Positions 4,602 through 37,367 of a stretch of DNA of 64,000 nt are shown here, one piece after another; within the stretch, counting starts at the first letter, position 1, and each line of letters begins with the position of its first letter. The notes under the pieces were generated by a model. That model was not told the DNA's origin, did no database searches, and saw only the letters and a program-made list of their open reading frames with translations. The stretch comes from a virus, in IMG/VR virus record IMGVR_UViG_3300009127_000250, positions 1 through 64,000 of that record. One strand, given 5' to 3'. The position numbers were made by a program, and so were the translations under genes.

Positions 4602-5762
4602 TTATGAGACAGGTTTTTCGTCCTTTTTTTCGTTCCTTTTTTCTTTATCCATCACCCTTTCAAAAGCCGATCCGTCATCTCTGGTCAAATTCGGAATAAA
4701 GCGATTATATCTTTTTAACGTGGTTTCCACATCTGTATGGCCGAGCATCTTTGATACCCATGTGATCGATTCCCCAGCTGCAATATGGAGTGTAGCAAAA
4801 GTGTGGCGCATTTGCTTTTGTGGCCTGTATTTCAATCCGGCCAACCTCAGATAATGCCTCCATTTCTGGCGCATGGTACAAACCGTCCATTGTCGGTTTG
4901 TATGAGTTAACCAAACAAACTTACCCATTAATCCGGTTCTGGCTTCCTGACGGTGCAAGGCATCAATTGCAATCGGTTTAAGATCAACATCACGGATGGA
5001 CGATTTTGTCTTGGGTAATCCGGTTGAGCCGTTCTGTCGACGGTTTTCCCTTATAAGAGTTTTACGGTTGAAATAATCTATATGCTCCCATTTTAAAGCA
5101 TATAGTTCTCCCGGCCTCAATCCGGTCCTTGACCAAAATATAATTAGATCCCGCCAGTTGGGATATTTTTCAAGATAACTAAGCCAGTACTTTAGTTCTT
5201 CAAACGAAAAAGGATCTATTTCAGAAGGGCGTTCATCCAGTTTGCCGATTCCTGCACAAGGGTATTCAGGTATTAGTTTTCGTTTCGTGGCAAACAACAG
5301 CACCATGCAAAGCGTTATCATATACTGATTGACAGTTGACTCTGATAAATTTTTTCCCTGTAATAATTTTCTAAAAACCAAGACATCATGTTCTTCAATG
5401 TTCCCGATGGACCAACCGCCAAAGTACGGCTCTATATGATTAGTAAAATGGCGTTCATAGTTTCTTTGCGTTCCAAACGTTATAGTCTTTTGGGATAACC
5501 ATATTTCGAATACTTCGGAAAGGGTAATATCGGTTACCGTTTTTTGGAAATGTTTGGCCTTTGAGCCGTTGGGGAAAAATTTAAGATAGTCGAACGTACC
5601 GGTTTTAACATGGTATTCAATAGCCTTCCATTTGGACTTAACCCTGGCCTGATTCTTTTTAGTGATGTCACCTTCATATTCGACACATCTTACCCGCTGA
5701 TCGTTTGGTAAAGTGCACCGAAAATCTATTACCAGCTTGTCACCCCGTCTGCCGACTGCCAT
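4602..5762 (-). CDS. int: Tyrosine integrase with N-terminal arm-binding domain
   Basis: TGLRPGEL, MRHTFAT, LGHTD..Y catalytic residues. Confidence 0.95.
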   Translation of the reverse strand: MAVGRRGDKLVIDFRCTLPNDQRVRCVEYEGDITKKNQARVKSKWKAIEYHVKTGTFDYLKFFPNGSKAKHFQKTVTDITLSEVFEIWLSQKTITFGTQRNYERHFTNHIEPYFGGWSIGNIEEHDVLVFRKLLQGKNLSESTVNQYMITLCMVLLFATKRKLIPEYPCAGIGKLDERPSEIDPFSFEELKYWLSYLEKYPNWRDLIIFWSRTGLRPGELYALKWEHIDYFNRKTLIRENRRQNGSTGLPKTKSSIRDVDLKPIAIDALHRQEARTGLMGKFVWLTHTNRQWTVCTMRQKWRHYLRLAGLKYRPQKQMRHTFATLHIAAGESITWVSKMLGHTDVETTLKRYNRFIPNLTRDDGSAFERVMDKEKRNEKKDEKPVS

Positions 5763-34239: not shown

Positions 34240-34405
34240 AAAATTCCTCCAAAGAATATTTTTATAAAAACCGATCATAAAAGTTATTAAGATGTCAAGG
34301 GAATTTTAAAAAATATTATAAAATTGTTATGAATATGAAAATAACACTTGCTTTTTTATAATTATTTGTTACTAATAGTAAGAATTACAAAAAGGAGATA
34401 TCTAA

Positions 34406-34651: not shown

Positions 34652-34695
34652 AAAAATTTTATTAACCATCTTACTGAAAGTAAGGAGAATTATTC

Positions 34696-35565
34696 ATGAA
34701 ACAGTATTTAAAGACTATGGTTCGGGGTTGTTATACCGTTCAGAAATTAAGAATTCAGACTGGCAATCGGTTGGTTGCCAACTTTAGGGCCAAGTTGGGT
34801 TTGGATCCGAGTCAGAAGGAAGATGAGCTTGACAAGGAAGGTAAGCGGATCATGGAAGACATTCGGGCTGCTTTTCGGAAGATTACTGACGGTGTTTTGA
34901 GTTTGCCGAACCGGAAGAAATTTAAGGCCGAGGGTGTTATTTCGTCATACACGGAATTTGCTTTGATTTCTCAGTACATTGGACTTGAGGAATCGGAGAA
35001 GCGTCATTTTAAGCAATTAGAGGGTATATTGGCTGAATTTCCGCTTTGGACGAAGTATTTGGAGTCGGTTAAGGGCGTGGGCCCCGCTATGGCCGGTGTG
35101 ATTATTTCGGAGATTGACATCGAAAAGGCGGAGTATCCGTCCTCACTGTGGAAGTATGCGGGTTTGGACGTTGCTGAGGACGGCAAGGGTCGGAGTAAGC
35201 GCAAGGAGCATCTTATTGAGGTTGAATATAAAGCTGCTGACGGGGAGGCCAAGCTTCGAAACAGCATAACGTTCAATCCGTTTTTAAAGACGAAGTTGCT
35301 TGGTGTTCTTGGGACTTCATTTTTGAGATTGGGGCCGGATCGGTCTAATTATGCCAAGACTTATTATGATTACAAGAATCGTCTTGAGAATCATCCGGAC
35401 CATCAAGAAAAGACCAAAATGCATCGTCATCGTATGGCTTTGCGGTATGCGGTGAAGCGTTTTCTTGTGGATCTGCATATTGCGTGGCGTGCGATTGAGG
35501 GTTTACCTGTTTCAGTTGAATACAGTGAGGCCAAGCTTGGCATGGAGCATAAGAAGGCTGCTTAA
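34696..35565 (+). CDS. TIGR-associated Nop-domain protein, TasA-like (IS110 C-terminal-like, no nuclease domain seen)
   Basis: Coiled coil, KGVGPAMAGVIISEI, SSLWKYAGL, FNPFLKT, H..ALR..VKRFL..L..WR..EGLP; directly followed by the array. Confidence 0.85.
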   Translation: MKQYLKTMVRGCYTVQKLRIQTGNRLVANFRAKLGLDPSQKEDELDKEGKRIMEDIRAAFRKITDGVLSLPNRKKFKAEGVISSYTEFALISQYIGLEESEKRHFKQLEGILAEFPLWTKYLESVKGVGPAMAGVIISEIDIEKAEYPSSLWKYAGLDVAEDGKGRSKRKEHLIEVEYKAADGEAKLRNSITFNPFLKTKLLGVLGTSFLRLGPDRSNYAKTYYDYKNRLENHPDHQEKTKMHRHRMALRYAVKRFLVDLHIAWRAIEGLPVSVEYSEAKLGMEHKKAA

Positions 35566-35992
35566 GTCCGTTAGTAACCCTAAGTGTCATAGCGAGTCAT
35601 TGGCATTAAGAAATCCAACATCTTGTAGCGAGTCATCGATATACAGAAACCCTGACATCTTTAGCGTACCGTCCCTGGCAAGAAAACCAGATTAAAGTAG
35701 TGGATCAGAAAGGGTTAGAAATCCAATAAGTTTGAAGTGTGCCAGAAAGGGGGAGAAACCCAATTTACCACAGCGAGTCTATGGAAAAATTAACCCAACA
35801 TAATTTAGCGAGTCATTTGGTGTAAGCAAACCAGCACAATATAGCGAGTCAGGAGGACAAAGAAATCCATTGTCAAATAGCGTGCCAGGAGGTGAGAGTA
35901 ATCCAGTCATTTGTTAGCGAATCAATCCTTACAAGAAATCCAACGAGCAGTAGTGGGTCAGAAAGAAGAAGAAAACCAATCTTGTTCAGCGA
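35564..35992 (+). ncRNA. TIGR array: 11 full units plus a partial leading unit, about 36-nt period
   Basis: Alternating AG(C/T)G(A/T/G)G(T/C)CA-like and AG(A/T/C)AA(T/C/A)CCA-like 9-mers separated by variable 8-10 nt spacers. Confidence 0.9.
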
Positions 35993-36036
35993 TTTTAAAG
36001 TAATTTTAGTTGTTCTTTTTAAATTATAGTTTATAT

Positions 36037-36110
36037 GGCGCGTTGGTGAAGCGGTCGAACACACCGGTCTTTCACGCCGGTATTCACGGGTTCAAATCCC
36101 GTACGCGTCA
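36037..36110 (+). tRNA. tRNA-Glu(TTC), CCA not encoded
   Basis: GGCGCGT/ACGCGTC stem, CTTTCAC loop, GGTTCAAATCC. Confidence 0.88.
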
Positions 36111-36274
36111 CTTTTGTTTTCTTTGGCCTAAGTGCTTTGACCTGATTGTGTCCAGACCATGAGGTACGGGGAGTTCGAAAAATTCGTTCAATGATCCTAT
36201 CAAGGAAGTGTGGCGAGAACAAAAGGGTGACACTCCGGAGAGACGGAGTTTTAGACCAAAGAAAACAGTTTTAT

Positions 36275-36353
36275 AGTCCAGTAGTGAAGTCTGGTCTATC
36301 ACGTCGGCCTGTCACGCCGAAGATCGCGGGTTCAAATCCCGTCTGGACTGCCA
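36275..36353 (+). tRNA. tRNA-Asp(GTC)
   Basis: AGTCCAG/CTGGACT stem, CTGTCAC loop, CCA. Confidence 0.92.
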
Positions 36354-36832: not shown

Positions 36833-36977
36833 TATCGATTTTAGATCTGGTTGATTTGTATTTCCAAATTGGTTCTGAAGGTCTTGAGTTAAAAATCAAA
36901 AACATCGGCAATTGCCCGTATGTGCCGACGTTTTTGTACCAAGCCGTACAACAATTTGCATACAGAGATACAAAATT

Positions 36978-37367
36978 ATGTATATCGAAAAAACACGAAT
37001 ATATTATAAAAGCACAGAGCAAAGAACTATGCCCGCCAGGTTTTTGATTCTGATCCAACACAAAGATAAACCTCTTGGCCCTGACAATTTTCGCGCAATA
37101 GTGCGCAAGGTTGCTTTGCACCAATTTGGTCATTTCATGATGGGAACTGCCAGGATTAAAGGCCATAGCATAACGCTCAGCGGTTCTTACGGCAGTGATG
37201 GATTGCCGCACACCACGGACATCGATGAAGTTTATAATGCTGCCATACCTGTTCCGAAAGAGCTTTATGATGCTTGGAGTGAAGGCGGCGGTCATAACAG
37301 TTGCGGAACCGAAGCCTGTGCTATGCGGGATTGGGCTTTAAAAAACATAAAGGAGCTAACGAAATAA
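36978..37367 (+). CDS. Hypothetical phage protein
   Basis: ORF track frame, internal ATG. Confidence 0.6.
   Translation: MYIEKTRIYYKSTEQRTMPARFLILIQHKDKPLGPDNFRAIVRKVALHQFGHFMMGTARIKGHSITLSGSYGSDGLPHTTDIDEVYNAAIPVPKELYDAWSEGGGHNSCGTEACAMRDWALKNIKELTK

Follow-up and report, generated by a model that had tools for sequence, protein, structure and literature searches.

The tasA gene and the array behind it in a 64,000-nt stretch of viral DNA (the window; positions 1 to 64,000 of IMG/VR record IMGVR_UViG_3300009127_000250) very likely constitute a TIGR-TasA system of the dual-repeat type that belongs to a tailed phage, with a mechanism that probably relies on DNA binding without cutting and would be directed against DNA outside the phage genome. 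The identity is supported by sequence homology and predicted fold, by the way in which the array is built and covaries, by a linkage of gene and array that is conserved in relatives and by the lack of a nuclease domain. These findings bear out the core of the original prediction, which had described a nuclease-less Tas protein accompanied by a dual-spacer TIGR array. Guide processing, dimer-guide stoichiometry, DNA binding and repression are carried over from published relatives and would hold here by analogy. The system is of a known kind, the TIGR-TasA family having already been published (2025-2026); the one unusual point is the occurrence of further guide units in frame inside the phage primase gene.

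In the mechanism that we propose, tasA and the array behind the gene would be transcribed together. TasA would bind both edge and loop repeats where they begin with box D (AG) and end with box C (YCA), and a C-terminal Tyr/His loop would probably cut the precursor inside each edge, releasing guides of ~36 nt that harbor two 9-nt spacers. A TasA dimer loaded with one guide would then open an 18-bp DNA site whose sequence is that of spacer A and then that of spacer B in reverse complement, so that the two spacers pair with different DNA strands. Since TasA is devoid of any nuclease domain, the complex is expected to bind this site without cutting it, and would most likely block transcription or replication of DNA outside the phage genome. 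Repression by a TasA has been demonstrated for MbTasA (preprint 10.64898/2026.09.09.750476). This evidence stems from distant TasA relatives with stem-loop guides, outside the dual-repeat clade, which counts against the proposed reading.

Predicted architecture and homologs of TasA

The tasA gene (34696-35565, + strand) encodes a nuclease-free Tas protein of 289 aa, as assessed from its open reading frame, Pfam, phmmer and an AF2 model compared by Foldseek. The predicted layout comprises an N-terminal coiled coil, a C-terminal domain of the Nop/IS110-RBD type and a C-terminal loop carrying Y276 and H285. Above the curated cut-offs, Pfam returns a single match, PF02371, the C-terminal domain of the IS110 family (residues 120-172, E 5e-6), and none of its DEDD/RuvC or HNH families is matched, in agreement with the motifs that had originally been read from the protein. 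Within PHROGs, TasA falls in PHROG 4285, which is labelled 'transposase'. The best phmmer matches in the PDB are TaTasR (9mty, E 2e-8) and SpTasH (E 1e-6).

The AF2 model, based on an alignment of 28 homologs, reaches a mean pLDDT of 82. Residues 1-170 are modelled as helical without strands, and the Nop-type domain follows them, so that the expected Nop fold is present in the model. In a Foldseek comparison with the PDB, the top ten matches are all TasH/TasR chains (E 2e-8 to 6e-7, probability 1.0), followed by a next tier represented by the IS621 bridge recombinase (8wt9, E 5e-3). In the comparison that the original prediction had suggested, sequence and fold alike point to TasR/TasH, and the fold favors them over IS621 and Nop5. 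The N-terminus of TasA aligns to TasR from approximately residue 124, indicating that the RuvC part of TasR has no counterpart here. Judged from sequence and model, the architecture is that of a nuclease-free TasA. Identity as a box C/D snoRNP was also considered and discarded: the Nop5 and Nop56/58 chains appear in Foldseek at E > 0.5, and the repeats are too short for k-turns.

The C-terminal loop deserves separate attention. In SpTasH, two residues cut the guide precursor, among them the catalytic Y289 (PMC13421893). It is with this tyrosine that Y276 aligns, and H285 lies two residues off H296. Both Y276 and H285 are invariant across the alignment of 28 homologs. The Tyr/His pair has been described as a mark of dual-repeat systems (preprint 10.64898/2026.09.09.750476). 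The predicted TasA homodimer passed the ipSAE mark (0.52 versus 0.00 for the best control). Among proteins solved as same-chain pairs, 20 of 30 reach this mark, compared with 1 of 23 among those solved as single chains. Contact agreement between runs is at least 94%, with a partner pLDDT of at least 75, and the interface is formed by helices 1-29 and 85-114. Because Tas dimers have already been solved, this outcome may reflect likeness to them only and does not amount to independent proof of dimerization.

TasA has more than 2,400 homologs of ~285-295 aa, the closest being 68% identical. The link between gene and array can be followed in 80 IMG/VR loci that encode relatives with 52-64% identity to TasA. 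Clusters of the repeat motifs lie directly beside the gene in 51 of these loci, and 23-24 of the remaining 29 display a 36-nt periodicity beside it, bringing the total to ~75 of 80. The repeat consensus of these relatives (edge AGCGAG(T/C)CA, loop AGA(A/C)A(A/C)CCA) differs little from that of the present array. None of their 726 distinct spacer pairs recurs in the window, the smallest distance being 6 of 18 positions. The same repeats are also found in the complete chromosome of Sporomusa aerivorans, beside a protein with 42% identity to TasA. Across 102 related loci, none of the eight neighboring ORFs recurs beside tas, except in a syntenic Desulfobacterales contig; as no neighboring gene is conserved together with tas, the gene and its array form a self-contained module.

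Array anatomy and pairing between neighboring edge repeats

The main dual-repeat TIGR array (35573-35992, + strand) was delineated by repeat parsing, motif counts and inter-repeat covariation. It opens with a leading loop repeat, AGTAACCCT, and a spacer B (35573-35590), continues with 11 full units in the order edge, spacer A, loop, spacer B (35591-35987), and is closed by a 3'-truncated edge, AGCGA (35988-35992), all on the + strand. Each unit is built from an edge with the consensus AGCGAGTCA, a 9-nt spacer A, a loop with the consensus AGAAATCCA and a 9-nt spacer B. The unit length is exactly 36 nt in 8 of the 11 cases, which upholds the predicted periodic array of ~36 nt with alternating edge and loop repeats and spacers of ~9 nt. 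Two units (4 and 9) extend to 37 nt owing to a 10-nt spacer B, and one (unit 6) is shortened to 35 nt by an 8-nt spacer A; we counted these three deviating units against the TIGR-TasA reading. All 12 edge starts that had been listed are present at their coordinates, the one at 35988 being merely the truncated AGCGA. The array does lie directly behind the gene, as had been stated, but begins 8 nt after the TAA (35563-35565) rather than at the stop codon itself, with the loop repeat at 35573.

Pattern counts set this arrangement well apart from chance. A relaxed dual-repeat pattern yields 22 matches in the window, compared with 1.7 expected, and none of 100 shuffles reaches this number. With a stricter full-unit pattern applied to the whole 74-kb genome, 16 units are detected, all on the + strand, versus 0.1 expected in shuffles.

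Several units resemble each other. Units 4, 5 (35699-35771) and 11 (35952-35987) have in common an AGTG edge variant and a spacer that starts with GAAAG, and GGAGG is common to units 8 and 9 (35843-35915). In the Sporomusa array, two units (2443-2478 and 2694-2729 of the fetched sequence) are identical at 17 of 18 spacer positions. As some units look like copies of one another, this resemblance suggests that arrays may grow by duplication of units followed by point mutation.

In the TasR structure, both repeats open with box D and close with box C, and the loop repeat contains an A-rich tetraloop (PMC12045711). In addition, one extra base pair of the edge repeat joins the two ends of the processed guide, that is, adjacent edge repeats (PMC12045711). 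The edge and loop repeats of the present array both follow the form AG...YCA, the loop consisting of AG, AAAW and CCA. We examined covariation in 74 sources, which together contribute 935 units. Throughout this set (100%), position 3 of an edge is complementary, as C:G or U:A, to position 6 of the edge before it; between positions 2 and 7 of the same two edges, complementarity holds in 99%. Both pairs covary, and mutual information is greater between neighboring repeats than inside one repeat.

The main array follows this rule throughout, with both closing pairs kept in 11 of 11 guides, three of them through a compensatory A:U. A occupies position 6 in three edges, and these three, and no others, precede an edge in which position 3 is T; the chance of such a coincidence is 1 in 165. 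Edge variants that appear 'aberrant' are thereby explained by compensatory pairing with the next edge. Since neighboring edge repeats display compensatory changes, they provide evidence at the level of sequence that guides would be processed and folded as in the solved complexes. This inter-edge covariation is the strongest indication obtainable from sequence alone that the locus would produce guides of the published form, and the compensatory rule could help to annotate or validate arrays.

Guide targets, genome context and alternative readings

Published cleavage data, with their 8-nt 3' overhangs and the C-5 rule (PMC12045711), define a target site in which spacer A comes first and spacer B follows in reverse complement, and the formula put forward in the original prediction agrees with this geometry. 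The 18-mer search that had been suggested along with it yielded no natural target in the phage's own genome, in the syntenic relative or, for three guides, in IMG/VR. When all 16 guides were compared with the 74-kb genome at a gap of 0-2 nt, no self-target was found with up to two mismatches, and the four matches at three mismatches compare with 4.3 for shuffled spacers. Targeting of kin was probed on a 148-kb contig of a Desulfobacterales MAG (TasA 66%), the closest accessible syntenic relative found. Scanned both ways, it displays no match with up to two mismatches; the reverse test is weak, with three guides passing the strict pattern. Six guides of Sporomusa aerivorans gave one 1-mismatch match to its own chromosome, in a coding region (~0.06 expected over the six), which we find unconvincing, and matches at two mismatches are no more common than for reversed controls. 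For comparison, a perfect match to a reconstituted 18-mer would be expected by chance at ~1e-4 to 1e-3 per guide and genome.

Guides 10 and 3 have one and two matches in IMG/VR, respectively, which corresponds to chance level. The reconstituted site of guide 9 reads GGAGG, 9 nt, ATG, and has 11 exact matches in IMG/VR, all of them gene starts with a ribosome-binding site and ATG. Three of these represent one gene, and most of the genes are unrelated. We therefore regard the matches as generic and do not accept them as a specific target; that guide 9 may aim at a translation-start region is a lead. In the opposite geometry, the reverse complement of spacer A followed by spacer B, guide 6 matches 36973-36991 (- strand) with one mismatch. 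This geometry would give 5' overhangs, as opposed to the published 3' overhangs, and the match was treated as probably due to chance. The same stretch also holds the exact reverse complement of spacer A of guide 2. Our negative results agree with the literature, which reports no natural targets for the TIGR-Tas family as a whole.

The assembly is a single virus record of 74,264 nt without terminal repeats. The locus had been described as prophage-encoded, which is more than a 74-kb virus contig can demonstrate, albeit one with an integrase. This tyrosine integrase (4605-5762, - strand; PHROG 1, E 1e-58) makes a temperate lifestyle plausible. The genome further encodes topoisomerase II, helicases, ligase, a primase-polymerase, a portal protein and five tRNAs; the combination of integrase, topoisomerase II, ligase and several helicases suggests a large temperate phage. 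A primase identical to that of the record is encoded on five contigs, the longest of which measures 91 kb, and the 74-kb record may for this reason be incomplete.

Behind the array, tRNA-Glu (36037-36111, + strand) begins after 45 nt and is followed by tRNA-Asp (36275-36353). Rfam identifies these two tRNAs and nothing else between 34000 and 36600. A terminator behind the array is typical of the TIGR-Tas family. No terminator-like site was found after the array and before tRNA-Glu, where the sequence folds no better than shuffles, and we counted this against the TIGR-TasA reading. As no terminator separates them, co-transcription of the array and the tRNAs is possible. On the upstream side, a perfect palindrome, CTTACT-N3-AGTAAG (34670-34684, + strand), overlaps the ribosome-binding site of tasA, and a copy with one mismatch (34368-34382) is located 300 nt upstream, just downstream of a promoter-like site. 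With up to one mismatch, the palindrome occurs five times in the window (8124, 34368, 34670, 43756 and 58086), compared with 0.05 expected. It is a candidate operator or RNA hairpin controlling tasA, and may serve as a phage-wide operator.

Additional guide units reside in and behind the primase gene. A pattern scan revealed a second array (20825-20990, + strand) composed of a leading loop repeat, four full units and a truncated edge, AGCG, and preceded by a 5'-degenerate edge, GAGCCA (20810-20815). This array is held in frame and on the sense strand by the ORF of a 639-aa primase-polymerase (20153-22072, + strand). A third, mini-array (22068-22126, + strand) has the same layout as the main array, with a loop-like repeat over the primase stop codon, one full unit and a truncated edge, AGCGA. 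Since a 36-nt unit equals 12 codons, the second array translates as SEPxxxSNPxxx, with the embedded edges read as Ser-Glu-Pro/Ser and the loops as Ser-Asn-Pro.

In an alignment of nine primase homologs, the array segment extends a linker by an insertion that the two closest (61% and 49% identity) possess and the more distant ones lack. In these two homologs, the SE(P/S)xxx(S/C/N)NPxxx period recurs with 'spacer' residues that differ throughout, a comparison made at the protein level only, as no primase relatives above ~30-40% identity were returned from IMG/VR or the metagenome collection. Published work describes arrays located within tas genes (preprint 10.64898/2026.09.09.750476), and we found no literature report of an array inside another essential gene. 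One might imagine that the units embedded in the primase gene and the one behind its stop codon are functional, with TasA cutting the primase mRNA to release guides and thereby coupling guide production to replication shut-down, a scenario that we consider doubtful. If true, it would represent a guide array inside an essential gene other than tas, maintained by the two closest orthologs despite turnover of its spacers. The in-frame primase units add a further gene to the published cases of arrays within tas genes and suggest a possible link between guide biogenesis and replication control.

These units also bear on a broader alternative, in which a working TIGR-TasA does its job inside the phage by timing the phage's own genes, helping the integrase to bend DNA or controlling replication, the primase units tying guide production to cleavage of the primase mRNA. 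Such a role would accommodate the four sense-strand, in-frame units and the one behind the stop codon, an arrangement that the two closest primase homologs retain, as well as the phage-wide palindrome on the tasA ribosome-binding site. The phage does encode an integrase, and assistance to an integrase is one of the possibilities raised by Faure et al. (PMC12045711). However, the guides lack matches to the phage's own DNA below three mismatches, with those at three remaining at shuffle level, and that TasA would cut the primase mRNA is purely conjectural. Taken together, we judge a role confined to the phage improbable.

Two further readings depart from DNA-binding TasA altogether, and both are extremely unlikely. 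According to one, tasA is the remnant of a decayed or domesticated IS110-family transposase and the neighboring tandem repeat has no guide function. The sole Pfam match (Transposase_20), the PHROG label and the annotation of a phiRSL1 homolog as transposase point in this direction, yet the protein has no DEDD domain and its many full-length homologs are of the same size, Foldseek places solved Tas proteins far ahead of IS621, and gene and array are linked in nearly all examined relatives. Moreover, compensatory changes in adjacent repeats are hard to explain without RNA structure, and a single scan, restricted to 35500-36100, detected no inverted-repeat ends. We regard the transposase remnant as effectively refuted. 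The other reading assumes snoRNP-like targeting of RNA, with guides leading TasA to translation starts of mRNAs, for example, and not to DNA. It draws on the Nop-type fold, on guides with box C/D-like motifs and on the guide 9 site, a Shine-Dalgarno sequence and ATG, whose exact IMG/VR matches are gene starts in 11 of 11 cases. Against it, TasR is inactive on RNA substrates, and its two spacers read opposite DNA strands (PMC12045711). The reading of guide 9 as ribosome-binding site and ATG requires the reverse complement of spacer B, and a single mRNA strand would consequently pair with one spacer only. Furthermore, none of the ~20 ORFs scanned (of ~66) matches the fibrillarin or L7Ae families, and few spacers of the clade (0.4%) contain GGAGG. 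A dual-repeat TIGR-TasA acting on DNA beyond the phage genome remains the preferred reading.

Relation to known systems

The IS110/IS621 bridge-RNA recombinases share the RNA-binding domain PF02371 with TasA and form the second tier of fold matches. They differ from the present system in their DEDD catalytic domain and their single bridge RNA, in place of which a guide array is found here; the locus bears no sign of an IS, the ends having been sought in 35500-36100 only. The best sequence and fold matches are instead SpTasH of Salicola phage CGphi29 (PDB 9W03, 9W04, 21KL) and TaTasR (PDB 9MTY). They resemble TasA in forming a coiled-coil dimer, which for TasA is a prediction, and in possessing the Nop domain, the Tyr/His loop for processing, the framing of both repeats by box D and box C and the A-rich loop repeat. 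Identity is ~20%, TasA contains neither HNH nor RuvC, and box D reads AG here and UG there. As the HNH/RuvC domain is absent, no cleavage is expected of TasA.

With respect to the missing nuclease, TasA resembles MbTasA and PlTasA, which are nuclease-free as well (preprints 10.64898/2026.09.09.750476 and 10.64898/2026.08.11.744272). MbTasA binds its target DNA and represses transcription (10.64898/2026.09.09.750476), and the same function is presumed here; in its preprint, MbTasA was tested among stem-loop systems (10.64898/2026.09.09.750476). PlTasA employs stem-loop guides (10.64898/2026.08.11.744272). Stem-loop clades are without the Tyr/His loop, whereas the TasA described here belongs to the dual-repeat type and retains it.

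A system of this kind is also present in a cultured phage, Ralstonia phage phiRSL1. Its ORF034, annotated as 'transposase', is 39% identical to TasA over its full length. The unannotated stretch of 1.4 kb behind ORF034 (NC_010811.2, 14218-15642) corresponds to a degenerate dual-repeat array, in which AGYG..CC / AGWCACCC repeats are spaced by multiples of 36 nt. The public 'transposase' annotation of ORF034 is therefore misleading. In contrast to the present locus, phiRSL1 is a jumbo phage of a proteobacterium, and its array is much longer and more degenerate.

The closest counterparts by description, rather than by direct sequence comparison, are the dual-repeat TIGR-TasA systems of which FpTasA of Flavonifractor plautii is an example (Faure et al. 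2025, Science; PMC12045711). In both cases, a solo, nuclease-free Nop-domain Tas is phage-borne and accompanied by an adjacent array with two alternating 9-nt repeats, 9-nt spacers, a 36-nt unit and a truncated final edge. The present system differs in having tRNA genes, and no terminator, behind the array, and in harboring further units 12-15 kb away, some of them inside another gene. The locus offers a cleanly parsed example of a dual-repeat TasA.
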